Shown one piece after another: positions 6,459 to 60,666 of a stretch of DNA of 64,000 nucleotides. The notes under the pieces were generated by a model that saw nothing but the letters and a program-made list of their open reading frames with translations, was not told the DNA's origin and searched no databases. The position numbers and the translations under genes are program-made. Origin of the DNA: a virus (Duplodnaviria > Caudoviricetes); IMG/VR virus record IMGVR_UViG_3300009031_000221, positions 416,001 through 480,000 of that record. One strand, given 5' to 3'. Position 1 is the stretch's first letter. Every line of letters begins with the position of its first letter.

Positions 6459-6498
6459 CGTATGAGTCCTTGAGGAGATCGTCTGTCCCCTGTGATGT

Positions 6499-6525
6499 AT
6501 CTACGCGGAACGGAGGAAAAGTAAG
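6499..6525 (-). promoter_or_regulatory. conserved promoter-like element (drives ligase C-half)
   Basis: CTTACTT-N12-GCGTAGAT; hairpin AGGGGA-CAGACGA-TCTCCT at 6473..6491. Confidence 0.85.
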
Positions 6526-6575
6526 CCCGTCAAGGTTGAACAATTTCGTGCTCAACATAGTACTCGAATGATACG

Positions 6576-6941
6576 CTAGTTGATCTCCGGAGAAATGGTG
6601 AGATTTTGACGCTGGTCAAAGGCTACAATGACGGTTTGGTCATCATTAATGATGTGACCATAGGCGGTCAAATCATCTAATAGCATATCCTGACATTTCG
6701 CGAATCCTTCCAACGTTTTTTCAGTGACGGATCCTGTCCACTTCACCTCGCGGAATGATTGACACACGTAGCATTCAATGTCATCGGGGTCTCCTCCCAT
6801 GGGGGCATCTGTGAAAGTTACTAGCCGACTCCCCTTAGGCAGTGGATCCGGTATTGCCTCCAATTCAGGTACGGGATCAACATCTACACGACCTCGCAAA
6901 GGGGTATACCGATGCTGATAACATATTCTCAAATATGCCAT
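6576..6941 (-). CDS. hypothetical protein (in ligase insertion)
   Basis: Start 2 nt after the TnsA-like stop. Confidence 0.55.
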   Translation of the reverse strand: MAYLRICYQHRYTPLRGRVDVDPVPELEAIPDPLPKGSRLVTFTDAPMGGDPDDIECYVCQSFREVKWTGSVTEKTLEGFAKCQDMLLDDLTAYGHIINDDQTVIVAFDQRQNLTISPEIN

Positions 6942-6943
6942 GG

Positions 6944-7765
6944 TTAATTCTCCAATGCGGATAATGCTAACATTGTCCACGCTTTGTGTTCCATACGCTC
7001 GATCCTATCAAGGGATAGGACACCACTATTCATGTTGTGCGTTGCGGCATACTGATGCAACGCCTCAATCTTCACTTTAGTCTTGGGATCATTTAGGAAT
7101 TCCTTGGGTTTGATTTCCCAAAGCTCCTGAATCCCACCCTCAAGTGTCACCAATAGATCAGGGATGTATTGGTGCTGCTGTCCCTCAAATGTGTACGGGA
7201 TCGCAAAGGGTTCGACTTCTACTTCTTCTACTTCATCGTATTGATCCAGAACCCAAAGCACCCGCCGTTCCCAGGATGATCGAACGTAGACCATCTGATC
7301 GGCTTTCACTGATAAAACCCACCCGGCATGGAACTTTTGATTTCGCACCCAATCTGGATGAGCCCGGATGTAATCCATAGTTCGTTGAGAGCATGCTGCC
7401 CGAAAATCTGGATTGTTCCGATGAACATTGTACTGGGCGATGGTTTCGGGGGTATGCCTCATACCTCGGCGTTTCGTAGCGGCTATTTCTGAAGAATTAG
7501 CGGATCTCAAGCTATCCATGCCAAAGGCCTTCTTGAAGGACTCCGCATCAGGGTAGCCATGCTTCTTGTAATGATGCGCTGAAATGCAATTAAGTTTCAC
7601 CTGACATACCGGGCATGTCAATGCATCCGATGCTAATGTAACACACCGATTCTTACGTCCTCGTATTAGGGGCTGGAGGGCTTGACATGCAGAGCACCAC
7701 TTAGGGTGGCTAAATTTGGTTCGCTTGGTTATATCCGCCCCGCAAGGGCATTTCAATTCATCCAT
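6944..7765 (-). CDS. TnsA-like PD-(D/E)XK endonuclease with N-terminal Zn/NUMOD3-like DNA-binding parts (putative homing endonuclease)
   Basis: YVRSSWERR, EPFAIPY, YIPDLLV, WEIKPK; RHTPETIA NUMOD3-like. Confidence 0.75.
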   Translation of the reverse strand: MDELKCPCGADITKRTKFSHPKWCSACQALQPLIRGRKNRCVTLASDALTCPVCQVKLNCISAHHYKKHGYPDAESFKKAFGMDSLRSANSSEIAATKRRGMRHTPETIAQYNVHRNNPDFRAACSQRTMDYIRAHPDWVRNQKFHAGWVLSVKADQMVYVRSSWERRVLWVLDQYDEVEEVEVEPFAIPYTFEGQQHQYIPDLLVTLEGGIQELWEIKPKEFLNDPKTKVKIEALHQYAATHNMNSGVLSLDRIERMEHKAWTMLALSALEN

Positions 7766-7766
7766 G

Positions 7767-8774
7767 TTAGTAGTCCCGATCGGACTTCCCGAATAACGTT
7801 ACCTCCAAAGGGGTCATTACATCCGAATCCTTGCGGCGACGCCCCGCATTGATTGCCCCCTGAATAGACTTGATGATGCCGATATGCCCAACTTTCAAAG
7901 TATTATTCTGCCCCAAGGCGGCACTGATCGTATCCGAATGCTGGACAAACAAGGGCACGAGCCTATCGGCAGCCAAGCTGGTATTCAGCTTATCTTGGTT
8001 CTCGTTCCAGATCAGAAATATGATGGGCATGATGTTAATACCCCAAAGCGGCAACTTGGTGGCGCCTTTCGTTGAAAGGGTTCTCGTTGCAATAGGATTC
8101 CACCAATTTAGGAAATTTGCCATCTTCTGGAACTTAGAAGGATCATCGATATACATCATGTCCTCCGTAGCATTCCGAGAAACTACCATCTGTGTGATTC
8201 GTTTCTTGGAAATACAATCATCAAGCCGCACTTGCATGTTTATTACGGAAGTCAGACTGGCAGGCCCAGGCTTCTGAAAGGCATTATTGGTATCCAGCAA
8301 CCCCGCTTTCTTGAATACCGGAGTCCATTTGCACTCCCCTGATCGTTGCCCGATCTTTGCACTAGCCCCTGCCGTTAAGATCGAACCGGCATTCTTGCTA
8401 TTGAGCGCATAGAAGTAACGATGCACCGCATTGCGGCTACTGCAAGCCGTAAGGGTAACTGGAAAGTCATTGATGGTATCATGAATCGTAGCGGTCATAA
8501 CTCGATCAGATTCGGTAACATCATTGGATTCCGACAAGCAGTAAATGCGGTGTTGCCCATCAACAATAATGTATTCGTCTTTGTTCTTCGGGTGCTTGAG
8601 GAGTACCAGATCGCCCTTGATGCGAACGATGTCCCACGATGACCCTAATGCTACAGCCCGTTTCTTTGCGATAGGCCGATTGACGAATCCAAACCCATGT
8701 TCAAGCTTGAACAGGTGGAATTTCGTCCCCAGGGATCCCTTCTCGATAGATATATTGCACTTTGTAGTAGCCAT
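7767..8774 (-). CDS. DGQHR (ParB/Srx-fold) domain protein
   Basis: YIIVDGQHRIY motif; visibly lower GC than the ligase halves. Confidence 0.7.
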   Translation of the reverse strand: MATTKCNISIEKGSLGTKFHLFKLEHGFGFVNRPIAKKRAVALGSSWDIVRIKGDLVLLKHPKNKDEYIIVDGQHRIYCLSESNDVTESDRVMTATIHDTINDFPVTLTACSSRNAVHRYFYALNSKNAGSILTAGASAKIGQRSGECKWTPVFKKAGLLDTNNAFQKPGPASLTSVINMQVRLDDCISKKRITQMVVSRNATEDMMYIDDPSKFQKMANFLNWWNPIATRTLSTKGATKLPLWGINIMPIIFLIWNENQDKLNTSLAADRLVPLFVQHSDTISAALGQNNTLKVGHIGIIKSIQGAINAGRRRKDSDVMTPLEVTLFGKSDRDY

Positions 8775-8886
8775 TGATGATATCCTTGATGTGCGGGTGA
8801 AATTACCCGGTAGATGATCTACCCGGCTAAGGGATCAAATTAACCTACCCTTAGCACTAAATCAAGGAATAAATTTCGAAGGCCCT

Positions 8887-10041
8887 TTAGATGTCATTCA
8901 CGATGCCTTCATCAACATTGGCTTCCAAGCGCGGAATAACGTCGTTCCTCTTGGAAACCAGGACGTTGCATCCTGGGAACAACTTGAGATGCTCGACTTG
9001 GCGAACTCCCGCAAGGCTAGCACGGGTAACCTTGGCCCCGCCAAGAATGACCTCATCAAAGATCGCAACGGGGGTGATTCGGCCCGAGTTGCCAACCTGC
9101 CATTGGATATCACGGATGATCGTCCGCTTTGCCTCGAAGGGAAACTTGTAGGCGATCGAACCCTTAGGGCGCCCGCCCAAATCTCCGTGGATTTCCCGGA
9201 TAACCGTATCGTCAATCTCGACAACGAGACCATCAATTTCGTATCCGATCGCCTTCCGCTTGCTCGCACAGTAGATCTGGTATTCCGCCTGAACTTCAGC
9301 CAAGGCTTTCCATACCGACCATTTCGGCGTTTGGAACCCCATGTCTTCCAATGCCAGGAGTTCCGTGGACTTCGATGCCATGGACACGCCTTGCGGCATC
9401 AGGTTGTAGCTCTTGAATGTCAAGTAGGAGCACTTGGCGAAATCGGTCTGCCGCATCAACGTGCCCGTGGCAGAGTTACGTGGGTTGGATTCACCCGGGA
9501 AATGCCGTGCAAAGTCCGTGTGCATGATGATGACTTCGCCCCGAACCCAAACATTGGCGGGAGTCGGATTGCCATCAGGCAGGAATGGGGGAAGCATCTT
9601 CACAACGCCCTGCATCAACATGGCATTGCGAGTAACTTCCTGGCCAATGGAACCATCGCCACGAGTCACTGCCTGAACCAGCACCCTATTGAGGTAATGC
9701 ATGCTCAAAGAGCAACCGTCAAGCTTGTCCATGACGATCAGGGATGATTGAGCGCTGCAACTCGTTACCCAGGCCTGCATGTCCTCGAAGAGCTGTGCCT
9801 TGTTCAGGGAACTCATCGGGATGGTGTGCTTGACCTTGGGCCAACCACCGGCAGTCGGACCTTGCGACACGGGAGCGCCGATGGTCTTCAGGAATGCGTG
9901 GTTAGGATCCAACTTGCGGAGGTCATCCTCAACAGAGTCGTAGACCGGATCGCTGACCAGAGGGGTTCCGGCGTAGTATGCCGCTTTCCACTTGGTCAGA
10001 TTGGCAACCATCTGATCGATTTGTGCTTGGTTCGCGTTCAC
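8887..10041 (-). CDS. ligA: NAD+-dependent DNA ligase, N-terminal part (Ia, adenylation, OB)
   Basis: YY..P.VSD..YD, PMSSL, KLDG, TRGDG, RGEV, NPRN, IDGLV, AYKFP, GRITPVA, NDVIP; ends with TAA after the OB fold. Confidence 0.93.
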   Translation of the reverse strand: MNANQAQIDQMVANLTKWKAAYYAGTPLVSDPVYDSVEDDLRKLDPNHAFLKTIGAPVSQGPTAGGWPKVKHTIPMSSLNKAQLFEDMQAWVTSCSAQSSLIVMDKLDGCSLSMHYLNRVLVQAVTRGDGSIGQEVTRNAMLMQGVVKMLPPFLPDGNPTPANVWVRGEVIIMHTDFARHFPGESNPRNSATGTLMRQTDFAKCSYLTFKSYNLMPQGVSMASKSTELLALEDMGFQTPKWSVWKALAEVQAEYQIYCASKRKAIGYEIDGLVVEIDDTVIREIHGDLGGRPKGSIAYKFPFEAKRTIIRDIQWQVGNSGRITPVAIFDEVILGGAKVTRASLAGVRQVEHLKLFPGCNVLVSKRNDVIPRLEANVDEGIVNDI

Positions 10042-10084
10042 TGGGGGCTCCCTCTATAGGACATCGTCTGTGCCCTTACGTACG

Positions 10085-10111
10085 ATCTACGCTAAAAGAG
10101 GCAGAAGTAAG
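10085..10111 (-). promoter_or_regulatory. conserved promoter-like element (drives ligase N-half)
   Basis: CTTACTT-N12-GCGTAGAT; hairpin GGGCA-CAGACGA-TGTCC at 10059..10075. Confidence 0.85.
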
Positions 10112-10118
10112 TCTAGAC

Positions 10119-10328
10119 CTACCGTGGGAATTCTATCGAATCGGCACCATTATCACACCACTTCCGGCATGAAATATTTCTACGAGGATCCCCGTTTTCG
10201 CAACGCTTGGTGCATCGTTGAACACTGCTGGCTTGGTTGCCCAGGTATACGCCAACGGAAGCCCCCGCAATACAAATCAACACAAAAGCTACAATCAACC
10301 ATCCCTTTGCGGACATTCTATCCTCCAT
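10119..10328 (-). CDS. small membrane protein
   Basis: One TM segment plus Cys-rich tail. Confidence 0.55.
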   Translation of the reverse strand: MEDRMSAKGWLIVAFVLICIAGASVGVYLGNQASSVQRCTKRCENGDPRRNISCRKWCDNGADSIEFPR

Positions 10329-10377
10329 ACGAAGTTGCCTCTACATCACATCTACGATGTACCCTCGAATAGTAAGT

Positions 10378-10560
10378 CTAGCGCTGAACGATGTGCCACC
10401 CTTGGTGAATCACATTGGAGATTTCCTCAGCCAACGCGGGGTCAAGGACTCGTACCAGTTCACGCAATGAATGAAGGTCAAAGGATTGCGTCTCCTTGAC
10501 CGTCCATCCAAGGACTTTCGCGATTCGTTCGTGCATGGCGCTCTCCCCTAGTCGTCCCAA
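10378..10560 (-). CDS. hypothetical protein
   Basis: Gene tiling. Confidence 0.55.
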   Translation of the reverse strand: MGRLGESAMHERIAKVLGWTVKETQSFDLHSLRELVRVLDPALAEEISNVIHQGWHIVQR

Positions 10561-10811: not shown

Positions 10812-10812
10812 T

Positions 10813-11298: not shown

Positions 11299-11307
11299 GA
11301 CGGGCTC

Positions 11308-11819: not shown

Positions 11820-11858
11820 CGTAGGTTCCTAAGGGTATCGTCTGCGCCCCGGTAGTAC

Positions 11859-11885
11859 ATCTACGCTGGCACAAGGGAAAGTAAG
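11859..11885 (-). promoter_or_regulatory. conserved promoter-like element
   Basis: CTTACTT-N12-GCGTAGAT. Confidence 0.85.
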
Positions 11886-11888
11886 TAT

Positions 11889-12170: not shown

Positions 12171-12182
12171 GGTAAATCCTTG

Positions 12183-12557: not shown

Positions 12558-12615
12558 GGAGTACCCCTGAAACAGCAACGAGTTTCTTGAGGACATCGTC
12601 TGTGCCCTACACATC

Positions 12616-12642
12616 ATCTACGCTACAATCGGCGGAAGTAAG
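12616..12642 (-). promoter_or_regulatory. conserved promoter-like element
   Basis: CTTACTT-N12-GCGTAGAT; hairpin GGGCA-CAGACGA-TGTCC at 12591..12607. Confidence 0.85.
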
Positions 12643-12911
12643 TCCCAGTAGGTGATGAATTCGTCTTGAGTCCATGCACCGCTTTCCCTAGCCGGCCAGT
12701 TCTTCGCGTCCCATGGAATGGTTTTGTAGGGCATCATCTGCTTCATGTCCAGAAGGTCAATGGCGTCCCCTTCCTCGAACTTCTGTTCCCCTTCCTTGCC
12801 GTAGTTCCAGAATACGTAGATGGAGTTGATGATGAACACCGTGTAGTGAACATCTAGACCATCCGCATCCTTCTCAGGGTACAGAAACTGGACTGTCTTT
12901 GTGATTAGCAT
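12618..12911 (-). CDS. hypothetical protein
   Basis: Stop is the TAG of the GCGTAGAT box. Confidence 0.55.
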   Translation of the reverse strand: MLITKTVQFLYPEKDADGLDVHYTVFIINSIYVFWNYGKEGEQKFEEGDAIDLLDMKQMMPYKTIPWDAKNWPARESGAWTQDEFITYWDLLPPIVA

Positions 12912-13722: not shown

Positions 13723-13725
13723 GGT

Positions 13726-14382: not shown

Positions 14383-14386
14383 GTTT

Positions 14387-16353: not shown

Positions 16354-16388
16354 CGTAGATTCCTGATGCGGGCATCCGTGCCCTGCTA

Positions 16389-16652
16389 TCAATCTACGCT
16401 GCCGCGACGAAAAGTAAGTCCATCATTCGATGCCCTGCATCCGTCCGATAGTACTTCGCTAGGTTGCGAGCTAGCTATACAGGCTCCCGTCAACATCCGA
16501 CCCTTTGCCTTACGGCAAGCCTTCAAGTGATCACGATACTCGGATTGCATTCCCGCATCATCCGTTTCCTGAATCACAGAAACCCAGACGTACGCCGCAA
16601 GTGACCAACGCTTGTTCTTCTCCGCATCCAATGCTTCTTCAAGTAGCGTCAT
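16389..16652 (-). CDS. hypothetical protein
   Basis: ATGA coupling to MBL stop; reads through the element at 16392. Confidence 0.45.
   Translation of the reverse strand: MTLLEEALDAEKNKRWSLAAYVWVSVIQETDDAGMQSEYRDHLKACRKAKGRMLTGACIASSQPSEVLSDGCRASNDGLTFRRGSVD
16392..16418 (-). promoter_or_regulatory. conserved promoter-like element
   Basis: CTTACTT-N12-GCGTAGAT; hairpin GGGCA-CGGA-TGCCC at 16370..16383. Confidence 0.85.
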
Positions 16653-19734: not shown

Positions 19735-19771
19735 AAGGGTGCCTATCACCCATCGTCTGTGGGCGTGACCT

Positions 19772-19798
19772 ATCTACGCTCCTAATGGCGAAAGTAAG
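19772..19798 (-). promoter_or_regulatory. conserved promoter-like element
   Basis: CTTACTT-N12-GCGTAGAT; inverted-stem hairpin CCCA-CAGACGA-TGGG at 19749..19763. Confidence 0.85.
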
Positions 19799-19800
19799 TC

Positions 19801-21591: not shown

Positions 21592-21624
21592 CGTCGTTCC
21601 CCTGGGAATCCGTTCCCGCACCCT

Positions 21625-21651
21625 ATCTACGCTGCTTGTTTGGGAAGTAAG
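21625..21651 (-). promoter_or_regulatory. conserved promoter-like element
   Basis: CTTACTT-N12-GCGTAGAT; hairpin GGGAA-CGGA-TTCCC at 21604..21617. Confidence 0.85.
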
Positions 21652-22169
21652 CCCCGCTGATACAAACAAGCATGTACCCTGGATTGAATAGACGTTTGCA
21701 CCAAGTCCCACCCATACCGAGTCAAATCAGGCCGTTTGTGAGGAGACATAATCAGGATTGCGGGAGACACACACCCTAGTTGATGAAGCAACATCGGCAT
21801 CCAGGATGGATCAAGCAAATGCATCGCATAGCTGCAGCACGCCAAGGAATAGCTACCCGTAATCCCGTTCGATGCGATGGATTGGAAGGACAACGGAATG
21901 GCATCCTGTCCCGTTCGTTCCTTGTAGGCTTGCCCTGTGTAGGGATCTATCCCGGTGGCATGTCCCCCGAGGGATTTCACTTCTAGCGTGATTTCCCCCG
22001 AACCGCAAGCCAAATCCAGCACGTTGGTCAAATCGAGATTCCAATCTTGGACGCATTGCCGAAAGCATGCACGGACAATAGCCTCATGCGGGTTCCTATA
22101 GGTTCCACCATCCTTTTGGTAGAACCCAGCGACACCCTGTTGCACGTACTGGCTCCGAATGCTATTCAT
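21627..22169 (-). CDS. class I SAM-dependent methyltransferase
   Basis: VLDLACGSGE motif I, GIDP, YAMHL. Confidence 0.75.
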   Translation of the reverse strand: MNSIRSQYVQQGVAGFYQKDGGTYRNPHEAIVRACFRQCVQDWNLDLTNVLDLACGSGEITLEVKSLGGHATGIDPYTGQAYKERTGQDAIPLSFQSIASNGITGSYSLACCSYAMHLLDPSWMPMLLHQLGCVSPAILIMSPHKRPDLTRYGWDLVQTSIQSRVHACLYQRGLLPKQAA

Positions 22170-24612: not shown

Positions 24613-24656
24613 GTTCGTCTCCAGGCGGGCTAGTCGTTTGCAGCCCCCTATGTATC

Positions 24657-24683
24657 ATCTACGCTGATGGAGGCGAAAGTAAG
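24657..24683 (-). promoter_or_regulatory. conserved promoter-like element
   Basis: CTTACTT-N12-GCGTAGAT. Confidence 0.85.
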
Positions 24684-25220
24684 TCACGCCTCAACCGATT
24701 TGAAGCATTCTTTGTGATACAAACGGCTTACGCTCAGCTTAAGCCGCGTATCGGCATCCTTGCCCCGAATCCACACGGCAGGGGCATCCACGTCAATGTA
24801 CTTGCCGCATGCACCACAGGCAGTCATGGAATTGCACGTAATGTCGATGGCGACATGGTTCAGGATCTTGGGCTGCGGCTTGGGCGCCTGACGCATTTCC
24901 ATCATCCGTTCAATGGATTGCAAACCCCGCCTCATCTTGTCGCCCTCGGTGGTATTCGAGGTGTGGATGCGAATCACCGGCGGCATGTAGGTAGAGCATG
25001 TGGCAACCTGCTCCTCAATCCACAGGAACACGGCATAGCCCTCACGGGGGCGCCCGTCCGCATCGGGAGGCAAACCCAGGTCGTTGTCCAAGCTGATCTC
25101 GTCAACCAGGCCAGGAACCTTCAGCAATTCGATGGTTGCCTCAGGCGTGTAGGTACGCACCCAATCCAGGGTGACACCCGCTGCCTCCGGGGTACGCTCA
25201 TCATCAAGGAACAACTTCAT
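24684..25220 (-). CDS. cyclic-phosphate-processing receiver-domain protein
   Basis: MKLFLDDERTP, ISLDNDLG, IRIHTSN. Confidence 0.75.
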   Translation of the reverse strand: MKLFLDDERTPEAAGVTLDWVRTYTPEATIELLKVPGLVDEISLDNDLGLPPDADGRPREGYAVFLWIEEQVATCSTYMPPVIRIHTSNTTEGDKMRRGLQSIERMMEMRQAPKPQPKILNHVAIDITCNSMTACGACGKYIDVDAPAVWIRGKDADTRLKLSVSRLYHKECFKSVEA

Positions 25221-25423: not shown

Positions 25424-25467
25424 TCTCTCTTCATGTCCATTCCTCGAGGGCATCGTGCCTACGTTCT

Positions 25468-25494
25468 ATCTACGCTGTTCCCACAAGAAGTAAG
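25468..25494 (-). promoter_or_regulatory. conserved promoter-like element (divergent pair, left)
   Basis: CTTACTT-N12-GCGTAGAT. Confidence 0.85.
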
Positions 25495-25508
25495 TGTCCT
25501 ATGCGTGA

Positions 25509-25535
25509 CTTACTTTCCTACCCATCAGCGTAGAT
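25509..25535 (+). promoter_or_regulatory. conserved promoter-like element (divergent pair, right)
   Basis: CTTACTT-N12-GCGTAGAT; hairpin GGGCG-ATGA-CGCCC at 25543..25556. Confidence 0.85.
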
Positions 25536-25572
25536 GATACATGGGCGATGACGCCCTCCTAAAGGAACGACG

Positions 25573-25920: not shown

Positions 25921-25940
25921 AGAATTCTTTCCGAAGGGCA

Positions 25941-25967
25941 CTTACTTTTCCCATCGACAGCGTAGAT
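25941..25967 (+). promoter_or_regulatory. conserved promoter-like element
   Basis: CTTACTT-N12-GCGTAGAT, identical to the copy at 28325. Confidence 0.85.
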
Positions 25968-26016
25968 GGTATGTGGGCACCGAACGCCCCTCAACACACA
26001 CAAGGAACCTGACACC

Positions 26017-26586: not shown

Positions 26587-26588
26587 CA

Positions 26589-26615
26589 CTTACTTTCCCT
26601 TCTAGCAGCGTAGAT
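26589..26615 (+). promoter_or_regulatory. conserved promoter-like element
   Basis: CTTACTT-N12-GCGTAGAT. Confidence 0.85.
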
Positions 26616-26653
26616 GTAATACGGGACGCGAAAGACGCCCCAAGGAACCTACG

Positions 26654-28076: not shown

Positions 28077-28324
28077 AACTGCAATGGTTGCCCAGACCTT
28101 CGACGGATCCCTATGGTTGTGGGTGGGAACTCGCAACCAATGACCGTCAATACCTCACCTATGATGGATTCGATCGCTTCGGGGACATCCGGGCCACTGT
28201 CATGGAAGAATCCACGGACAAATGGGTCGCGTACATTACATGGAAGGTCGATGAGAATCCTCCGAATGCCGAATGCAAGAAGGATGCGATGCTTTTGGCG
28301 GAAAGCAAAATCGAAGACGAGTGA
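28073..28324 (+). CDS. hypothetical protein
   Basis: ATGA coupling; stop abuts element. Confidence 0.6.
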   Translation: MKLQWLPRPSTDPYGCGWELATNDRQYLTYDGFDRFGDIRATVMEESTDKWVAYITWKVDENPPNAECKKDAMLLAESKIEDE

Positions 28325-28351
28325 CTTACTTTTCCCATCGACAGCGTAGAT
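28325..28351 (+). promoter_or_regulatory. conserved promoter-like element
   Basis: CTTACTT-N12-GCGTAGAT; hairpin GGGCA-CGGACGA-TGCCC at 28359..28375. Confidence 0.85.
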
Positions 28352-28388
28352 GATACATGGGCACGGACGATGCCCTAGGACGCAGACG

Positions 28389-28659: not shown

Positions 28660-29238
28660 ATGTACAAGACTGGCTCCGGCCCCCTCAAGCGCGGCGAACT
28701 TCACGAGGTTCCCCCGGCAGCGGAAAACATGGGCATCCGTGCCCTGCGGGAAATCCCTTACCTCAGCTGCACCTCCGTTGACATCAACGAGGTTGACCAC
28801 ATCGGCCACGATGAGGGCGGTGTGGACATGGATCCCGCCTACCAGCGTGGGCACGTGTGGGAACCCGCTCAGGAGTCCGCGTTCGTTGGCTACCTGCTCA
28901 AGGGCGGCAAGGCTGGCCCGATTTGGGTCAACCGCTACGAGGATGCGACCACGGGCGGCGCCAACTGGTTCGACCTCCCCGTCACCATCATCGATGGCAA
29001 GCAGCGCCTGACCGCCCTCATCCACTGGACGCAGGGGGAAATCCCCGCGACCCTGAACGGAAAGGACATCTGGTACAAGGACTTGTCCATCATCGACCGT
29101 CGCATGCTCCCGCACCTGGATGTGTGCTACGTCAACATGACCGAGAACGACCAGATGCGGCTCTACCTGAACCTCAACAGCGGCATCGCCCACACCACGG
29201 ACGAACTCGACCGGGTTCGCGGCTTGCTGGCGGAATAG
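28660..29238 (+). CDS. stand-alone DUF262 (GmrSD N-terminal/ParB-Srx fold) protein
   Basis: PAYQRGHVW, IIDGKQRLTAL, LNLNSG. Confidence 0.8.
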   Translation: MYKTGSGPLKRGELHEVPPAAENMGIRALREIPYLSCTSVDINEVDHIGHDEGGVDMDPAYQRGHVWEPAQESAFVGYLLKGGKAGPIWVNRYEDATTGGANWFDLPVTIIDGKQRLTALIHWTQGEIPATLNGKDIWYKDLSIIDRRMLPHLDVCYVNMTENDQMRLYLNLNSGIAHTTDELDRVRGLLAE

Positions 29239-29241
29239 GCA

Positions 29242-29268
29242 CTTACTTTCGCCCCTAGCAGCGTAGAT
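29242..29268 (+). promoter_or_regulatory. conserved promoter-like element
   Basis: CTTACTT-N12-GCGTAGAT; hairpin GGGCA-CGGATGA-TGCCC at 29276..29292. Confidence 0.85.
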
Positions 29269-29306
29269 GTAATGCGGGCACGGATGATGCCCCGAAGGAA
29301 CCGGAC

Positions 29307-29540: not shown

Positions 29541-29942
29541 ATGTATGGTAAAGGATCCAAGATTATAGCGAAAACCTACATGAAAGCCCTGCGGGATCGT
29601 ACGGTTTGCGCTATATGTGGTCGGCAGCCTGTAGACTTTCACCATAAAGATCCCGACGCCAGTAAAGATAGATGGATAGCACACCTTACGGTCTTAGGGT
29701 TTCCAATCCCACGAATTGAAGCCGAACTAGCGGTATGTGAACCCCTTTGCCGCTCATGTCATATGAAACAGGATGGTAGATTAGCATTTCTGAACGCCAA
29801 CAAACCGTTTCCTAAAGGGGTGCAGTTACCTCCGAAGCCCTGTACGTCATGTGGTATCCCCGCCAAGCCCCTGCGTAAAGGGCTGTGTAATAAGTGCAAT
29901 CACCAAAAGCGTAGGGATAGCAAACGTAATGCTATCCTATAG
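29541..29942 (+). mobile_element. HNH endonuclease-like protein
   Basis: CAICG...DFHH...ELAVCEPLCRSCH; lower GC. Confidence 0.65.
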
Positions 29943-29969
29943 CTTACTTTCGGCTCTATCAGCGTAGAT
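29943..29969 (+). promoter_or_regulatory. conserved promoter-like element
   Basis: CTTACTT-N12-GCGTAGAT. Confidence 0.85.
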
Positions 29970-30002
29970 GATACATGGGCACGATTCCCAAAGGAACCTA
30001 CG

Positions 30003-30221: not shown

Positions 30222-30227
30222 GCATGA

Positions 30228-30254
30228 CTTACTTTTCGTTCTAGCCGCGTAGAT
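30228..30254 (+). promoter_or_regulatory. conserved promoter-like element (drives WGR-PARP)
   Basis: CTTACTT-N12-GCGTAGAT; hairpin AGGGCA-ACG-TGCCCT at 30262..30276. Confidence 0.85.
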
Positions 30255-30298
30255 ACCACATAGGGCAACGTGCCCTCCAAACGAGAGGAACAAAGAAC

Positions 30299-33403: not shown

Positions 33404-33405
33404 GG

Positions 33406-33432
33406 CTTACTTTCCTCTTCCTCGGCGTAGAT
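33406..33432 (+). promoter_or_regulatory. conserved promoter-like element
   Basis: CTTACTT-N12-GCGTAGAT; hairpin GGGCGA-CGGATGA-TCGCTT at 33440..33458. Confidence 0.85.
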
Positions 33433-33470
33433 AGATCGTGGGCGACGGATGATCGCTTTGAAGGCATGTC

Positions 33471-37859: not shown

Positions 37860-37861
37860 AG

Positions 37862-37888
37862 CTTACTTCTTGACCTAGCAGCGTAGAT
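37862..37888 (+). promoter_or_regulatory. conserved promoter-like element (drives second ART)
   Basis: CTTACTT-N12-GCGTAGAT. Confidence 0.85.
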
Positions 37889-37925
37889 CGGGTATCCCTC
37901 TAGGCAAAGAGGGCACGACGACGTT

Positions 37926-38831
37926 ATGGGACAAAAGTCACGCATCACCCCGGTAGAACCCCCTACGAAAAATGCAGGGCTTGTACGGAAGAACACCGTG
38001 CGGGCCGATGTGAAGATCAAGCGGGAATTCGATCAACCGTTGAATGTGAAACGGCTCCCGCATCCTACGGGGCCGAAGCTCCAAGGCTACATTTGCGCTG
38101 CGTCCTGGGAAGTCATCACGGATGATGACCAAACCCTTCGGTTCCTCATGTTGGAAGACCAACTGAAGAATACGCAACGGTTGTTCCACGGCACCCCGGC
38201 TGTAAACATCGGGGACATCGTACAAATGGGACTACGCCCTGGTAAATGGGGCATGTTCGGTGCCGGTATCTACACGGGCGGCATCGGCAAGGCTATCAAT
38301 TACGCCCACGGATTTGGGGCACACTACGTTCTTGAGGTCGATGTCATCCTGGGGAAGGTCAAGGAATGCCTTGGTGCGGAGAAATGGGCGTACAAAAGGC
38401 TGCTAGACGCGGGATTCAACTCCGTTGGCGGCTTTGCCAACCTCACATCTTCCTGGGGCGGCAAACTTCGCCACAATGAATACGTTGTCTACGACCGGGA
38501 ACAAGTTCTGATCCAGAAGGTTCACGAGTACCAACGGGATTACTCCATTGCTGCGACCTACCCTACGCAAGGTGCTTGCAATCTGATTGTGGAGAAAGAT
38601 ATCGTCCCCACGAAGGGGCTCCGTACTTTCAAGGATGTCCTGGCCAAGCAGCCCTGTGGCAAGATCGCCTATCGGCGATGCACTACCAAGGTAACTAATA
38701 CTGGCCCGTTCGATTCCATTTGGATTTGCAATAATTGCCTCGAGAAATACAAGATTCGCATTGGTTCCAAGGTTGAGGCACGTTTTGGGACTTATCAATT
38801 GCGGAATCAGATCATCACTATCACGGGCTAG
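37926..38831 (+). CDS. PARP-like (H-Y-E) ADP-ribosyltransferase catalytic-domain protein
   Basis: LFHGT, GMFGAGIY, AINYA, VILGK, HNEYVVYDREQV. Confidence 0.8.
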   Translation: MGQKSRITPVEPPTKNAGLVRKNTVRADVKIKREFDQPLNVKRLPHPTGPKLQGYICAASWEVITDDDQTLRFLMLEDQLKNTQRLFHGTPAVNIGDIVQMGLRPGKWGMFGAGIYTGGIGKAINYAHGFGAHYVLEVDVILGKVKECLGAEKWAYKRLLDAGFNSVGGFANLTSSWGGKLRHNEYVVYDREQVLIQKVHEYQRDYSIAATYPTQGACNLIVEKDIVPTKGLRTFKDVLAKQPCGKIAYRRCTTKVTNTGPFDSIWICNNCLEKYKIRIGSKVEARFGTYQLRNQIITITG

Positions 38832-40275: not shown

Positions 40276-40340
40276 ACACTATGCAACTCTCATAACGCTC
40301 CTATTGGGACTTTTATAGCCCTATCTTGAACATTCGGACA

Positions 40341-40367
40341 CTTACTTTCGGATAGTTCAGCGTAGAT
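40341..40367 (+). promoter_or_regulatory. conserved promoter-like element
   Basis: CTTACTT-N12-GCGTAGAT. Confidence 0.85.
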
Positions 40368-40402
40368 AGATGGTAGGGCGAATGACCCTTAGGAAATCGA
40401 CC

Positions 40403-42784: not shown

Positions 42785-42785
42785 A

Positions 42786-42812
42786 CTTACTTTCGGGCAG
42801 AAGTGCGTAGAT
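42786..42812 (+). promoter_or_regulatory. conserved promoter-like element
   Basis: CTTACTT-N12-GCGTAGAT. Confidence 0.85.
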
Positions 42813-42892
42813 AGGGTGTGGGGTCGGCGAATGATTGACCCCAGTCCCTAGATGCTAGACACGAGGCAGATGACCTCGTACAGGAGTCCTCC

Positions 42893-43714
42893 ATGTCACT
42901 CATTGCCAACGCTTTTGTGTCCGATCCCGCCCTCGCGGCCCCCATCGCCCAGTCCGCGGACTGGCGTTCGGCCACCCTCGACCTGATCACGTTCCTGATT
43001 GGCCGTGGCGATTGCTTCAGCTCTGGCGAGATCGCCACCGCCCTCCGCGTCCACCGCACCGACTTGCGCTTTTCCGTGCCCAACCTGGGCGAGTACGTCC
43101 GTGACCTGTTCTACGGTGGTTCGATGCCGCAGTACAAGGAAGACGACGGTACCGGCCAGTTGGACTCGGTTTCGGTCTCCATGAGCCCCCGCACCACGCA
43201 GGGCCTCTACCCGGATCGCACCCCCGAGGGTGTCCAGGTGTTCGTCTACGGCCCGTCGCAGGGTGCGTGTGATTCGCACGAGTTCGAGGTCTTCATCCCG
43301 AACCCCTCCGCGGGTGAGACGATGGCTTCGGCTCCGGTTCCGGCCACGCCGACCAGCGTCAAGGTTCCCAAGGGTGGCGGCGTGTTCATCGGCGGCGCCC
43401 AGACGCCCCTGACGAACATCCAGGGCAAGGTGTGGCCCGATGGGCGCCTCAGCATCCCCCGCAGCGCCTTCGAGGCCTGCGTTCACATGAACGGCACCTC
43501 CATGCGTGGCGGTGACCCGGTCTACGTGAAGTGCTCCGCCACGGAAGCGGTTGTCACCCTGACGGATGACGGTACGGGCAACGCGAAGTCCTACGACCTC
43601 ACCCGCGACAATGGCCGCATCGCCTTCAAGGCGCCGGCGGGTCTCGCCGCCTTCGTGCCCGGCGATACCTACGACCTGGTGGTCACGGCCGGCAAGATCA
43701 CCGTCGCCCTCTAG
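42893..43714 (+). CDS. putative DNA-binding protein (wHTH-like N-term, AbrB/MraZ-like C-term repeats)
   Basis: FSSGEIATALR; DGRLSIPRS and DNGRIAF; extreme codon bias. Confidence 0.45.
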   Translation: MSLIANAFVSDPALAAPIAQSADWRSATLDLITFLIGRGDCFSSGEIATALRVHRTDLRFSVPNLGEYVRDLFYGGSMPQYKEDDGTGQLDSVSVSMSPRTTQGLYPDRTPEGVQVFVYGPSQGACDSHEFEVFIPNPSAGETMASAPVPATPTSVKVPKGGGVFIGGAQTPLTNIQGKVWPDGRLSIPRSAFEACVHMNGTSMRGGDPVYVKCSATEAVVTLTDDGTGNAKSYDLTRDNGRIAFKAPAGLAAFVPGDTYDLVVTAGKITVAL

Positions 43715-50910: not shown

Positions 50911-50922
50911 GATGATGTATGA

Positions 50923-50949
50923 CTTACTTTACCGATCCACAGCGTAGAT
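50923..50949 (+). promoter_or_regulatory. conserved promoter-like element
   Basis: CTTACTT-N12-GCGTAGAT. Confidence 0.85.
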
Positions 50950-50988
50950 AGGCTACGGGGCGCATACGATGGCCCGAAGGAACCGACG

Positions 50989-53553: not shown

Positions 53554-53570
53554 GGGTATAGGGAAATACC

Positions 53571-54445: not shown

Positions 54446-54453
54446 GTGATTGA

Positions 54454-55113: not shown

Positions 55114-55116
55114 GTC

Positions 55117-55650: not shown

Positions 55651-55653
55651 CAC

Positions 55654-56043: not shown

Positions 56044-56058
56044 CCATAAGGAATTAAC

Positions 56059-56298: not shown

Positions 56299-56304
56299 AA
56301 GGAA

Positions 56305-56931: not shown

Positions 56932-56934
56932 CAC

Positions 56935-57327
56935 ATGAACCTCGATGACGCGATTCTACATGCCCGGCATCAATCCTGCCAAGGTGGGGAATGCGGAGCG
57001 GAACATGACCAGTTAGCTATGTGGCTCGAGGAACTCCGTAACCTACGGGCAGAGCAAGCACGTCGTCATGGGGAATCGAAGGAAGCAGTCCTTGAGGTTC
57101 TGGAGAACGCGGAAGCTTGGACAGCGGATGGATTCGAGGATGCCTTGGTAGGGTATGCGGACGTGGCGCAACGAACCATTGCGGTCTATGACTACGAATC
57201 GTGTGTCGAGATTCTGATGTCCCGGGATGGAATGACCCGCGAAGGGGCTGAGGAATTCATTGAATTCAACGTTATTGGGGCGGATGTCGGGAAAGGAACT
57301 CCAGCATTTGCAACCCTCATCAAATAA
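56935..57327 (+). CDS. fusion of two small conserved phage domains
   Basis: LDDAI.HA...EH.QLA.WL.EL plus ADGFEDALVG..VYDY..EFN..GA.VG..TP. Confidence 0.6.
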   Translation: MNLDDAILHARHQSCQGGECGAEHDQLAMWLEELRNLRAEQARRHGESKEAVLEVLENAEAWTADGFEDALVGYADVAQRTIAVYDYESCVEILMSRDGMTREGAEEFIEFNVIGADVGKGTPAFATLIK

Positions 57328-57337
57328 GGAAACGAAC

Positions 57338-57679
57338 ATGGCTATTCTAGGTGTAGCGGGAAACAACCCCAATGGAAACGTGGTGATTCTGTCTGCGGAT
57401 GACGCGGATGATGCGACCACGGCACAAATGTTGGAACAGGCAAAGTTGGCCTTCATTGATACTGCCAAGTATATCATCGTCGCGAATGTGGATATCTATA
57501 CGAATACCCTGGATCTCAAGTACCTTGAAGGAAAGGTGCTATTCCTCCATGGGGAGGATATGAGCATGGACCAAGTCGATACCCTTCAAGGTCTTGTATC
57601 AGATGCTGTTGGGGATACCGATGTTGGCGTAATCATCACGAACTTTGAGATCAATACGCGGGTGGTTGAATGTCGGTAA
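57338..57679 (+). CDS. hypothetical protein
   Basis: AAGGAA RBS. Confidence 0.65.
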   Translation: MAILGVAGNNPNGNVVILSADDADDATTAQMLEQAKLAFIDTAKYIIVANVDIYTNTLDLKYLEGKVLFLHGEDMSMDQVDTLQGLVSDAVGDTDVGVIITNFEINTRVVECR

Positions 57680-57993
57680 ACAAGTACACCATGCTCGTGG
57701 AGAAGCTCGCTACGGATGGCAAAGGCCAGATGACGTGCTTCGGCCAATCCATGATGCCTATCCTCAAGTCCGGTGGAACCGTCACCTTTGAGAAGCGGGA
57801 CTCCTATGCGGTAGGGGACATGGTATTCGCGAAGGTCAGGGGACGCTACATAGATTGTCATTTGATTACAAAGGTTGGTTCGGATGGCAGGTTCATGATT
57901 GCCAATAACCATGGATGGGAAAACGGTTGGACGGACACCATTTACGGCAAGGCAGTTTCTGTGACCTACAAAGGCGAAACCAAGGAGTTGTAA
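57670..57993 (+). CDS. S24/S26-family peptidase-like protein
   Basis: GQSMMP catalytic Ser motif, VGDMV, HLI. Confidence 0.65.
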   Translation: MSVNKYTMLVEKLATDGKGQMTCFGQSMMPILKSGGTVTFEKRDSYAVGDMVFAKVRGRYIDCHLITKVGSDGRFMIANNHGWENGWTDTIYGKAVSVTYKGETKEL

Positions 57994-57995
57994 CC

Positions 57996-58778
57996 ATGTG
58001 TGGAGCTACGTCAGACCTAATCATTTACGAAGGGCGGGCATATTCAGGTATGATCCGTGACATGGTTCCACGTCATTCTACGGTGCCGGATTACGAAAAC
58101 ATGAACTGTTTCGGGTCTAGCCACATCTTGATATTTCAGGCAGGGTTAGGCGAACCAATTGTAGCCCCATGGTTACTCATTCGTACCCCCACGAAAGAAA
58201 ATGGCCCTGTCATAGATGAAATGCAGCCTGAGCCAATCCCCAAGTCTATTGACGGGGTTGTATTGTCGGGCGTGTTTCGCCACATTGATTCATTCGGGTG
58301 CGGTTATCGCCTTGACACAACGTACCAGTATTTGTTTCAAGACGTCATACTGTTCCTCTATGACAACATAGAGTGCACTGAGCATGAACTAGTGATACGG
58401 AATTCCAAAGTCGTAGAACTCCGTAGCCTGGGTCCTGTCGCATATGAACGAGATCCGCCTGAAAAGTTGAAAAAAAGGTACAACATCATCGCCCGTATGA
58501 TGCGTGAACCAAATTGGCGCAACCGCATTTGGCGCACATTCACTGGATCCGACGCACTTCGCCTAAGGATGAATTACAGAGGACTGTGGGAAGGCGAATA
58601 CGAGTTCTTGTCTGAGGATGAGTTTTGGCAAGTCATTGAAAGGCATGCCAGCAGTTCCGGGCGCCTTAGTCTAGCTAGTGCTGTAATCGATGTGTCCGAC
58701 ACCCCCGTAAGAGGCCTCCATCAATTCCCGCATCCGTTTGTACGTCGAACCAAAGACATAGTTCAGTTCATACATTGA
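57996..58778 (+). CDS. hypothetical protein
   Basis: Tiling; start trimmed. Confidence 0.55.
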   Translation: MCGATSDLIIYEGRAYSGMIRDMVPRHSTVPDYENMNCFGSSHILIFQAGLGEPIVAPWLLIRTPTKENGPVIDEMQPEPIPKSIDGVVLSGVFRHIDSFGCGYRLDTTYQYLFQDVILFLYDNIECTEHELVIRNSKVVELRSLGPVAYERDPPEKLKKRYNIIARMMREPNWRNRIWRTFTGSDALRLRMNYRGLWEGEYEFLSEDEFWQVIERHASSSGRLSLASAVIDVSDTPVRGLHQFPHPFVRRTKDIVQFIH

Positions 58779-58788
58779 GAGAAACGAA

Positions 58789-59697
58789 ATGAAAACCAAA
58801 GTCCTGTTTGACATGGAAACGGGTGACCCGGATGACGTACTCACCCTGGCCTTGTTGGCTACGCATCCGAAGGCGGATCTACTTGGCGTGACCATCACTC
58901 CGGGTACTCCTGACCAAGTAGGCATCGTTCGTCATGTTCTAGATGCCGTGGGTCGTGGGGATCTTCCTGTGGGTGCATTCAACCTGGATCATGGGAAATC
59001 TTGCGTATCCGAATGGCACTACAAGACGTTCGGCAAAGTCCCACCAAGTAGGAACGCCCTCAAGGGCTGGGAAACCCTTTGTGACTTGTGGGACGAAGAC
59101 GTGACTTTGATCACGGGCGGACCCTTGAAGAACGTTGGGGCATTACTTCACCAATTTCAGGCTGCCTGGAACAACGGTATCAAGAATCACCTTTGGCGTT
59201 TCGATGTAGGGAACATTGTCGTCCAAGGCGGGTTTGCCGGGGATGGGGTTGTGCCTTTTGAAATGCAATTGCCCAAGTTCCACGGACGAACCACGTGCCC
59301 AACGTACAACTTGAATGGCGATCCCACGTCTGCCAAATCCGTTCTGGCATTTGAGGAACTACGGGGCAAGCGGCACTTCGTGTCCAAGAACGTTTGTCAT
59401 GGTGTTGTCTACGACCGGGAGATGCACGATATCGTATGTGCCGTCCCATGTCCCCATCCAGGCCTCGCCCTCATCAAACGGTCCATGGATGCCTACGTTG
59501 CCGGGGACGGCGCTAAGGCCTTGCATGACCCCTTGGCTGCCATGTGTGCCCTATACCCTGAGATTGGGGTATGGGCAGAAGTAGAGATCTATCGGGAACG
59601 TGGAGAGTGGGGATCCAAGCTATCCCCCGGATCAGGAACATGGATCCTGATTGGATATGACAGGAAGCGCTTCTTGGAAGCCTTCTGCGAGGTCTAA
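58789..59697 (+). CDS. inosine/uridine-preferring nucleoside hydrolase family protein
   Basis: DMETGDPDD, TGGPLKN, QGGF, TYNL, LHDP. Confidence 0.8.
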   Translation: MKTKVLFDMETGDPDDVLTLALLATHPKADLLGVTITPGTPDQVGIVRHVLDAVGRGDLPVGAFNLDHGKSCVSEWHYKTFGKVPPSRNALKGWETLCDLWDEDVTLITGGPLKNVGALLHQFQAAWNNGIKNHLWRFDVGNIVVQGGFAGDGVVPFEMQLPKFHGRTTCPTYNLNGDPTSAKSVLAFEELRGKRHFVSKNVCHGVVYDREMHDIVCAVPCPHPGLALIKRSMDAYVAGDGAKALHDPLAAMCALYPEIGVWAEVEIYRERGEWGSKLSPGSGTWILIGYDRKRFLEAFCEV

Positions 59698-59700
59698 TCC

Positions 59701-59889
59701 CTACATGTCAATGATGAACACGCCGCGTTCGGAATCGACGTCATCGTCGGATTGAGCGCTGGTAGGCCTATCGGTAAATCCTGGGGGCATTGATTCAGGC
59801 ATCGGCAACCGAAGCATGGGTTGCACAGGTTTTACGGGTTGACGGATCTGCTCTTGACGCAACTGTTCAAGTTCTTCAAGCCATCCCAT
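59701..59889 (-). CDS. hypothetical protein
   Basis: Tiling; GAGG RBS. Confidence 0.55.
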   Translation of the reverse strand: MGWLEELEQLRQEQIRQPVKPVQPMLRLPMPESMPPGFTDRPTSAQSDDDVDSERGVFIIDM

Positions 59890-59891
59890 GG

Positions 59892-60221
59892 TTACACCTC
59901 TTCCAAATCCTTGTAGAACTTTGCCAGTTTGTCGGCCTCGAATCCCAAGCTCAGGTAGATGTCCCGTTCCATTCGCCGCACGTTGCGGTTCTCCTCCTCC
60001 GTTTCACTATAACCCCCGCGACGAAAGATGTCGAGGAGGGCGGAGTAGAACTCGAGTTCCAGGTCGGACTCGGGCTTGAACCCCTCCAGGGCACCCTTCA
60101 AGCAACGCATCATCAGGTAGCTCATGTGCGGAGTCGGGTTGAGCACAACTCCATCCAGGGATGGGGGAGCCAAAAAACACGAAGCGTTCAACAGAGATTC
60201 CAAGTCCTTGCGGATATCCAT
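59892..60221 (-). CDS. hypothetical protein
   Basis: TAATG-type coupling; start trimmed. Confidence 0.6.
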   Translation of the reverse strand: MDIRKDLESLLNASCFLAPPSLDGVVLNPTPHMSYLMMRCLKGALEGFKPESDLELEFYSALLDIFRRGGYSETEEENRNVRRMERDIYLSLGFEADKLAKFYKDLEEV

Positions 60222-60628
60222 TAGCCAGCCCTCCCCGCGATGCCCGTGATCTGATCGCCGCCACCGCCACCATGGGTCGGGCTGCTTCCTGGGCCATACC
60301 AACGATCATGGGGATTGCTGCTGAACGTGCGGACATCGCGCTGTGGCGTGACACCCTTCAGGTTCAACCCGTAGCCTTCCAGCATGATGCGAAGGGTCGT
60401 GTTGTAGATGCCCGTGTACAGGTGCAACTTGACCAGTTCCGAGGTCGTGAACGTGTCCCGGTCGCTATCCATCATGAACTGGACGAAGTCTTCCACGGAT
60501 GCGAATTCCGGTTCCTCCTCCAGTTCCGGGGGAAGCTCCGGGTTCTCCATGTGGCGGAAGTCCGCATCACCCTTGCCGAAGCGGGGTTCGGGCTTCTCTT
60601 TCTCAGGGACGTAGGAAGTGCGTGCCAT
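60221..60628 (-). CDS. conserved phage hypothetical protein
   Basis: AAGGAACC RBS after element at 60667. Confidence 0.75.
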   Translation of the reverse strand: MARTSYVPEKEKPEPRFGKGDADFRHMENPELPPELEEEPEFASVEDFVQFMMDSDRDTFTTSELVKLHLYTGIYNTTLRIMLEGYGLNLKGVTPQRDVRTFSSNPHDRWYGPGSSPTHGGGGGDQITGIAGRAG

Positions 60629-60666
60629 GTTCGGTTCCTTCAGGCGTCGTTCGCGCCCTATGTAGG

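Follow-up and report, generated by a model that had tools for sequence, protein, structure and literature searches.

The stretch of DNA considered here is a window of 64,000 nucleotides (nt) from a huge phage of the Caudoviricetes, positions 416,001-480,000 of IMG/VR record IMGVR_UViG_3300009031_000221. The whole record, referred to as G000:C1 where its own coordinates are needed, has a length of 536,053 bp, and the G+C content is 52-53%. Four sequencing runs contain this DNA, all of them DNA runs from one groundwater study. The genes of the window encode RtcB, NAD-dependent DNA ligase, RNA ligase, PhoH and a PARP-like protein, together with many small open reading frames (ORFs) to which no assignment was given. 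No match to the window at the DNA level is present in the phage collection. The subject of this analysis is a short hairpin located in the leaders of many of these genes, between a phage-specific promoter box and the ribosome-binding site. This hairpin element is genuine, has firm statistical support and is conserved among the related huge phages of the clade.

A hairpin between promoter and ribosome-binding site

The promoter box is bipartite, ACTTACTT-N12-GCGTAGAT, and specific to the phage. In the 536-kb genome it occurs in 65 exact copies and in 126 copies with at most two mismatches, compared with 0 and 1, respectively, in the reversed genome. One match with deviating spacing was dropped, and the remaining 125 promoters, 37 of which lie inside the window, were used throughout. 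Every box faces a Shine-Dalgarno sequence (SD) and a start codon, with a median distance from box to start of 30-38 nt that varies with the leader class. The order of the cassette is as follows: promoter box, 7 nt, hairpin, 1-5 nt, the SD AAGGAAC, about 6 nt and ATG. The 7 nt between box and hairpin show only a pattern of purines (R) and pyrimidines (Y): the fifth nucleotide after the box is Y in 56 and the sixth is R in 64 of the 67 hairpin-bearing leaders, and a second Y-R step is found at the seventh and eighth.

A hairpin was counted as compact if its loop had at most 8 nt and its foot lay 6-11 nt after the box. Such hairpins follow 60 of the 125 promoters (48%), whereas they are found in 8.3% of random genomic 50-mers and in 6.6% of dinucleotide shuffles of the leaders. 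The foot is positioned 6-8 nt 3' of the box with a standard deviation of 1.08 nt (n=65), and the gap to the SD has a standard deviation of 6.9 nt. Loops of 7 nt are present in 24 compact hairpins; 21 of these fit C-R-R-A-Y-G-A exactly, and CGAGCGA differs at one position. Shorter loops share the final GA: three are CGGA, two are ATGA, and CGA, GGA and TGA are found once each.

The heptaloop C-R-R-A-Y-G-A stands at a fixed offset after 28 promoters of the phage's own genome, or 33 if two sister phages are included. When hairpins with this loop and a stem of at least 4 bp are sought across the genome, 39 are obtained. Twenty of them lie 6-8 nt after a box, and the remaining 19 do not exceed what six controls with permuted loops give (7-23 hits). 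Consequently, the heptaloop hairpin is a promoter-linked element and not a general repeat. Its copies mostly precede short, tightly packed genes, with the next promoter directly after them. No leader hairpin is followed by a T-run or was flagged as terminator-like, and terminator-like sites are not enriched (14 versus 19.2±4.6 in shuffles). A hairpin GGAGAACG-TGTTAT-CGTTCTCC is located between the promoter at G000:224670 and a tRNA-like sequence recognised by eye, which speaks against the generic hairpin having a purely translational role.

The original prediction had drawn attention to eleven of these hairpins as a conserved leader structure. All eleven were recovered, with a box 6-8 nt upstream of each and an SD of the AAGGAAC type 1-5 nt downstream; those at 6473, 10059, 12591, 16370, 19749, 21604 and 60642 are on the minus strand and had been listed in sense orientation. 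The window holds further copies at 11832, 24627, 40375, 42819 and 42861, as well as loop variants at 26623 (CGAAAGA) and 50957 (CATACGA).

A start-proximal motif accompanies the cassette. Across the genome, ACG stands directly 5' of the ATG in 22% of promoter-proximal genes, compared with 2% of other genes. The same ACGATG is also found within many of the hairpins, where it extends over the loop's 3' half and the two adjoining bases of the stem. As for the polymerase that may read the box, a 259-aa sigma-factor candidate (G000 about 365,569-366,348) gives a weak match to Sigma70_r2 (E=0.03), and the genome-wide Pfam search returned no clear sigma factor. T7-like RNA polymerase (PF00940) had no match in the genome, a weak result given that the control likewise matched nowhere.

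Stem covariation and conservation in sister phages

The pairing of the stem was assessed in 33 promoters, from the phage's own genome and the sister contigs L010 and L011, which were chosen by the presence of C-R-R-A-Y-G-A starting 10-18 nt after the box, with pairing ignored. At least four of the five flanking pairs are formed in 29 of them and all five in 22. The mean is 4.33 pairs. Reassigning the 3' arms at random within the set of 33 lowers it to 3.41±0.13, and the highest value in 2000 such trials was 3.94. The two sequences without any pair are out of register: one has a CGGA tetraloop, the other a loop of 8 nt. The stems themselves are diverse, with 25 distinct stems among the 33 promoters. 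The closing pair is A-U in 19, G-C in 9 and G·U in 3 cases; the second pair is C-G in 20 and G-C in 7; the third is G-C in 18, C-G in 4 and G·U in 5.

In the alignment of these 33 rows (A1), changes on both sides occur at all six pairs. The covariation score is 0.570, compared with 0.266±0.034 for shuffled alignments, none of 500 shuffles reaches it, and controls with slid partners score at most 0.267. Loop positions C1, A4, G6 and A7 are invariant, while positions 2, 3 and 5 vary. The paired change of the stems around a kept loop, noticed in the first inspection of the sequence, is thus confirmed, as is the covariation across copies that had been proposed as its check. Since the copies are paralogues, the shuffle statistics overstate their independence, a point addressed by the comparison with sister phages.

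The original prediction attributed the pattern to selection on an RNA or on extruded DNA, and the wobble pairs narrow this choice. Read on the sense strand, the stems contain 16 G·T and 1 T·G pairs, as against 2 A·C and 3 C·A, which are mostly confined to misregistered rows. Because the wobbles are one-sided, the fold is kept on the sense strand, that is, in RNA or in non-template DNA; a cruciform and a hairpin of the template strand are ruled out. A palindrome serving as protein operator can be discarded too, since the arms vary from copy to copy around an unchanged asymmetric loop. In folds predicted with ViennaRNA, C1 pairs with G6 and A7 is bulged, which leaves a tetraloop R-R-A-Y.

Sister huge-phage contigs were reached through homologues of the short-form NAD ligase. 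L010, a 418-kb contig with a ligase 62% identical, and L011 carry nearly the same box, GGCTTACTT-N12-GCGTAGAT, with hairpins at the same offset; five of those in L010 have CGGACGA or CGAACGA as the loop, with GGCCA/TGGCC and TGGGG/CCCC among their stems. L015 and L033 rely on another promoter, GGATCATC-N12-GGAGTAG, and the hairpins between this promoter and the SD are GGGG-CAAATGA-CCCC, GGGG-CAAACGA-CCCC and GGGG-CGAACGA-CCCC. A third promoter type, GGCTTAGA..CGGGTAGT, is present in L036, in which GGAGA-CGGACGA-TCCCC precedes the ligase. For L013, L014, L034 and L035, samples of 21 kb per contig contained few such hairpins or none. With A1 as training set, a covariance model gave 19 hits at E<0.01 in 266 kb, all of them promoter-proximal leader hairpins, and these include three copies outside the training set (two in L033 and one in L036).

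The leaders of the ligase genes allow corresponding copies to be compared directly. The N-terminal half is preceded by AGGGCA-CAGACGA-TGTCCT in the phage studied here, by TGGGG-CGAACGA-CCCC in L010, by GGAGA-CGGACGA-TCCCC in L036, by GGGG-CAAATGA-CCCC in L015 and by GGGG-CGAACGA-CCCC in L033. For the C-terminal half, the leaders are AGGGGA-CAGACGA-TCTCCT in the phage itself and GGGCA-CGAACGA-TGTCC in L010. The loop thus outlives the turnover of both stem and promoter, which speaks for purifying selection on the loop and against mere co-inheritance of duplicated cassettes.

Broader searches were less productive. The promoter pattern gave 4 single hits in IMG/VR, consistent with chance, and the hairpin pattern GGGCACRRAYGATGCCC gave 28 single hits there, all in coding-looking DNA and with neither SD nor start codon following. 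Scans seeded with three proteins (sigma candidate, ligase and RNA ligase) matched only unrelated low-GC phages, and a single metagenome scan for relatives yielded one 1.4-kb contig.

The leader hairpins of the window are collected in Table 1.

Table 1. Leader hairpins of the window with their promoter boxes (window coordinates unless marked G000; hairpins written in sense orientation as 5' arm-loop-3' arm)
Feature	Hairpin	Position	Strand	Promoter box	Remarks
Heptaloop	AGGGGA-CAGACGA-TCTCCT	6473..6491	-	6499-6526	Precedes ligase C-terminal-half gene 5655-6458
Heptaloop	AGGGCA-CAGACGA-TGTCCT	10058..10076	-	10085-10112	Precedes NAD-ligase gene 8887-10041
Imperfect heptaloop	GGGGCG-CAGACGA-TACCC	11832..11850	-	11859-11886	Covariance model 20.7 bits
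Heptaloop	AGGGCA-CAGACGA-TGTCCT	12590..12608	-	12616-12643	
Short loop	GGGCA-CGGA-TGCCC	16370..16383	-	16392-16419	
Heptaloop	CGCCCA-CAGACGA-TGGGTG	19747..19765	-	19772-19799	Inverted stem
Short loop	GGGAA-CGGA-TTCCC	21604..21617	-	21625-21652	
Heptaloop with one extra base	GGGCTG-CAAACGA(C)-TAGCCC	24627..24646	-	24657-24684	
Triloop	GGCA-CGA-TGCC	25449..25459	-	25468-25495	Box back to back with plus-strand box 25508-25535
Short loop	GGGCG-ATGA-CGCCC	25543..25556	+	25508-25535	
Other loop	GGGC-ACCGAAC-GCCC	25975..25989	+	25940-25967	
Loop variant with bulge	GGG(A)CG-CGAAAGA-CGCCC	26623..26641	+	26588-26615	Covariance model 18.4 bits
Heptaloop	GGGCA-CGGACGA-TGCCC	28359..28375	+	28324-28351	
Heptaloop	GGGCA-CGGATGA-TGCCC	29276..29292	+	29241-29268	
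Leader hairpin	TGGG-CACGATT-CCCA	29976..29990	+	29942-29969	
Leader hairpin	AGGGCA-ACG-TGCCCT	30262..30276	+	30227-30254	Precedes 518-aa PARP-like gene
Heptaloop	GGGCGA-CGGATGA-TCGCTT	33440..33458	+	33405-33432	Two G·U pairs
Other loop	CCCTCT-AGGCAA-AGAGGG	37896..37913	+	37861-37888	
Heptaloop	AGGG-CGAATGA-CCCT	40375..40389	+	40340-40367	
Heptaloop	TGGGGTCGG-CGAATGA-TTGACCCCA	42819..42843	+	42785-42812	9-bp stem; usual promoter distance
Second (tandem) heptaloop of leader 42785-42895	ACGAGG-CAGATGA-CCTCGT	42861..42879	+		Abuts SD of 273-aa gene at 42893
One-mismatch loop variant	GGGGCG-CATACGA-TGGCCC	50957..50975	+	50922-50949	Covariance model 11.0 bits, E-value 6.9, weak
Heptaloop	GGGCG-CGAACGA-CGCCT	60642..60658	-	60667-60694	
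Leader hairpin	AGGGC-ATGAA-GTCCT	61794..61808	-	61816-61843	Box back to back with box 61857-61884
Leader hairpin	GGGCG-TCAA-TGCCC	61894..61907	+	61857-61884	
Identical 28-nt boxes				25940-25967; 28324-28351; G000 38074-38101; G000 492457-492484; G000 494668-494695	

Several arrangements of the cassette deserve separate description. In five boxes all 28 nt are identical, the normally variable spacer included (ACTTACTTTTCCCATCGACAGCGTAGAT), and the five hairpins downstream of them all differ. Exchange between cassettes would account for this, as would a preference for one spacer. Divergent boxes stand back to back, 12-13 nt apart, at 25468-25535 and 61816-61884, each with its own hairpin leader. 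At G000:C1 ~228470-228503 (minus strand), the -10 box GCGTAGAT of one promoter is part of a hairpin and makes up the 5' arm of its 12-bp stem, GCGTAGATCACT-CGGATGA-GGTGATCTGTGT. A promoterless GGGCA-CGGA-TGCCC at 28731-28744 of the window (minus strand), within coding DNA of the opposite strand, is probably a chance copy.

Two separate genes encode the NAD ligase of the phage, one for the adenylation/OB half and the other for the HHH/BRCT half; three ORFs lie between them, and both have a heptaloop leader of their own. The place between the ligase halves is taken by a gene for a TnsA-like endonuclease in most sister contigs that were sampled. An orphan hairpin, GGGGG-TGGATGA-CCCCC, lies at L014:4164-4188 (minus strand) in a gap of 800 nt free of genes; the first base of its loop is U instead of C, and no recognisable promoter of the type used by L014 stands upstream. 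In L015, a 132-kb contig, Cas3 and a protein with a CRISPR_assoc domain (PF08798) are encoded at L015:1-4503, beside the sampled region.

Proposed function of the leader hairpin

The function inferred for the hairpin is that of a 5'-terminal leader stem-loop in a standard cassette of promoter, hairpin and ribosome-binding site, acting as an RNase shield or insulator. The probability of this reading is estimated at about one half. In bacterial promoters, transcription starts 6-8 nt after a -10-like box. The start would then be the conserved purine 6 nt after the box, possibly the position 8 nt after it, and the stem would begin 0-3 nt from the 5' end of the transcript. A paired 5' end would block the decay routes that depend on this end, namely pyrophosphate removal by RppH, the 5' sensor of RNase E and the entry of RNase J, while the hairpin would also keep the ribosome-binding site free of upstream sequence. 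Dozens of unrelated accessory genes could in this way be given a uniform and durable message. The sequence C-R-R-A-Y-G-A, present in about a quarter of the promoters, might provide a special loop fold or serve for recognition by a conserved trans-factor.

Three functions had initially been proposed, an antitermination site, a translational operator and an RNase shield. Among them the shield fits the anatomy best: the foot keeps a fixed place relative to the promoter, 0-3 nt past the Y-R step that is the likely start of transcription, although the stabilising effect itself is inferred. Precedents are available: as cited in PMC3997798, 5'-terminal stem-loops stabilise E. coli mRNAs (Emory et al. 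1992; Bouvet and Belasco 1992), and the RppH of B. subtilis requires at least two unpaired 5' nucleotides.

A number of observations weigh against the shield. The 5'-terminal position is predicted from promoter geometry alone. A plain shield needs no conserved loop, and part of the signal would therefore be left without explanation. The element is not obligatory, as 58 of the 125 promoters are without a compact hairpin. Heptaloop hairpins also keep a narrow spacing to the SD, and the leader with hairpins at 42819 and 42861 has its second copy by the SD; both features fit a role in translation. The folding energies of single leaders are ordinary as well, with z from -1.3 to +0.7. They are not significant by themselves, and the case for the structure rests on position, covariation and conservation.

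The conserved loop leads to a broader proposal, which can only be put forward tentatively: the heptaloop hairpin may be a clade-wide RNA tag by which some of the early or accessory transcripts are marked out to a phage factor that is itself conserved. This factor could be the NusG paralogue discussed below, acting in the manner of LoaP, or an unrecognised regulator of translation or decay. Binding of the loop by a protein is possible.

In its most specific form, the C-R-R-A-Y-G-A hairpin would be the operator of a sequence-specific RNA-binding protein of phage or host origin, tuning the translation or decay of about 30 early or accessory transcripts in a manner comparable to the MS2-type coat-protein operator or to T4 RegA. 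Four loop positions stay invariant while the stems vary, the loop is kept in sister phages with different promoters, and the hairpin ends 1-5 nt before the SD, with one leader carrying a second copy that abuts it. A resemblance to known operator hairpins with a bulged A is also seen in the predicted fold, in which C-G closes a tetraloop and an A is bulged. However, no partner protein was found, Pfam searches of the genome for CsrA (PF02599), S1, S21 and IF3 gave no match, positions 2, 3 and 5 of the loop vary, and unrelated hairpins occupy the same place in many leaders, which suggests that structure alone is enough. Such an operator is regarded as rather unlikely.

Recruitment of an elongation or antitermination factor soon after initiation, as by lambda nut boxB and N or by LoaP, is improbable. 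The hairpin is promoter-proximal and is read on the sense strand, and a suitable factor could be a phage NusG paralogue: a protein with a NusG NGN domain (PF02357, 23.2 bits, above the cut-off) is encoded at G000:162669-162974 and is conserved across the huge-phage clade, including a 419-kb sister contig. LoaP does bind a small leader RNA hairpin (PMC12691694). Nevertheless, the loop is neither a GNRA-like pentaloop nor UNCG, no boxA-like element was found, the units mostly consist of short genes each with the next promoter directly after, and terminator-like sites show no enrichment. There are about 30 sites per genome, as against one or two nut or ops sites in the known systems. The lambda boxB-like site of the original prediction is not supported as proposed. 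The NusG paralogue is also present on the 261-kb contig of a phage with no heptaloop in the 21 kb sampled (L035); being clade-wide, its distribution cannot discriminate between the readings. The protein has 186 aa (G000:C1:162669-162974; L065:1282-1842, minus strand), its homologues share 43-79% identity and occur on many huge-phage contigs of 240-520 kb, and it is a core gene of the clade.

There is little to recommend an element that acts as DNA, whether as an extruded promoter hairpin of the type used by the virion RNA polymerase of phage N4 or as a recombination patch of the PeSL type, with the RNA fold incidental. The whole cassette of promoter, hairpin and SD is repeated, five copies share an identical 28-nt box, and the excess of ACG-ATG in promoter-proximal genes (22% versus 2%) would follow from a spread of cassettes as units; in T4-type phages, PeSL cassettes do mediate such shuffling (PMC2839356). 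Yet the five identical boxes bear five different hairpins, which are thus not simply co-inherited, and the loop is conserved though the promoters differ between phages. An N4-type promoter is a template-strand hairpin read by a virion T7-like RNA polymerase. The sense-strand G·T pairs would be A·C mismatches on that strand, and the search for a T7-like polymerase domain was negative, which counts for little with a control that matched nowhere.

The least credible of the readings is that the hairpins are CsrA/RsmA sites that tie phage mRNAs to the carbon-storage regulator of the host or titrate CsrA: the loops CGGA, CGGATGA and CGGACGA closed by A-U do read CACGGAYG, fitting CANGGANG, and a second GGA lies in the SD (AAGGAAC) about 10-20 nt downstream, a spacing that suits the CsrA dimer, but GGA, which is the single feature that CsrA sites never vary, occurs in no more than 8 of the 28 own heptaloops, the consensus is R-R-A with AGA, GAA, AAA and GGA all occurring, L015 and L033 use CAAAYGA or CGAACGA, and the phage has no gene matching CsrA. 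The match to the CsrA consensus pointed out in the original prediction is therefore confined to a minority of the loops.

Three further candidates were tried and rejected. Loops complementary to the heptaloop (TCRTYYG), as would be expected of a trans-acting antisense RNA, were found only as the antisense of the same hairpins (11 versus 1-11 in controls). A -10-like pause element was considered because the loop partly resembles GCGTAGAT, yet the loop is unchanged in phages with a different -10 box. A mini-ORF starting in the hairpin would have its AUG only when the closing pairs are A-U and C-G, and it is missing in many copies.

Huge phages carry hundreds of accessory genes. In the present phage, about 60 units couple a leader hairpin to the private promoter, and about 30 of them have the invariant loop. 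If the loop is read by a factor, the hairpins would constitute a phage RNA regulon operating after initiation, with a cis-element that outlives its promoters. If the hairpin is only a shield, it would represent a natural and portable module for 5' stabilisation or insulation. In either case, it is useful as a marker for the annotation of transcription units in this clade. The motif has no match in Rfam at the gathering score across the whole window, which makes it a candidate for a new cis-regulatory family. A full-text literature search, limited in extent, found no description of a huge-phage leader motif of this type.

Comparison with known systems

Among antitermination systems, lambda nut has in common with the present element a small promoter-proximal RNA hairpin that combines a 5-bp stem of variable sequence with a conserved loop. 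The boxB loop, however, has 5 nt and is GNRA-like (of the GAAAA/GAAGA type), boxA is needed, and there is one site per long operon with terminators. The loop described here is either of 7 nt or a short CGGA or ATGA, and only the promoter box and the SD are conserved beside the hairpin. The likeness to LoaP consists in a small leader RNA hairpin and the presence of a specialised NusG paralogue in the genome. The LoaP hairpin has a UNCG tetraloop, stands before a NusA-dependent terminator and serves one or two very long operons (PMC12691694), and none of these features is found in the phage, in which SD and start codon follow within 20 nt of the hairpin. Sites of CsrA or RsmE carry GGA in the loop (A/U-CA-N-GGA-N-G-U/A); a subset of the loops fits and the SD holds a second GGA, whereas most copies are without GGA.

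Stabiliser stem-loops at the 5' end, to which the T7 gene 10 leader also belongs, are the closest systems in terms of the proposed mechanism, in particular those of the ompA type. The E. coli ompA and papA leaders (Emory et al. 1992, as cited in PMC3997798) have a short hairpin near the 5' end and a free SD, an arrangement predicted for the present leaders, with the stem 0-3 nt from the start. Known stabilisers need no particular loop sequence and belong to one gene each, while here about 60 leaders have a hairpin, about 30 of them with the invariant C..A.GA loop that is kept across the clade, and the start site is predicted.

In architecture, the closest known system is PeSL of the T4-type phages (Arbiol et al. 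2010, PMC2839356). Both consist of a repeated intergenic promoter, a G/C-rich stem-loop and an SD, present in many copies before small accessory genes. PeSL promoters are sigma-70-like with AT-rich upstream regions, and their stem-loops occupy five positions relative to the promoter and act as terminators (PMC2839356). In the huge phage described here, by contrast, the promoter is a private bipartite box, and the hairpin always stands 6-8 nt after it, carries no T-run and often displays a conserved asymmetric loop.

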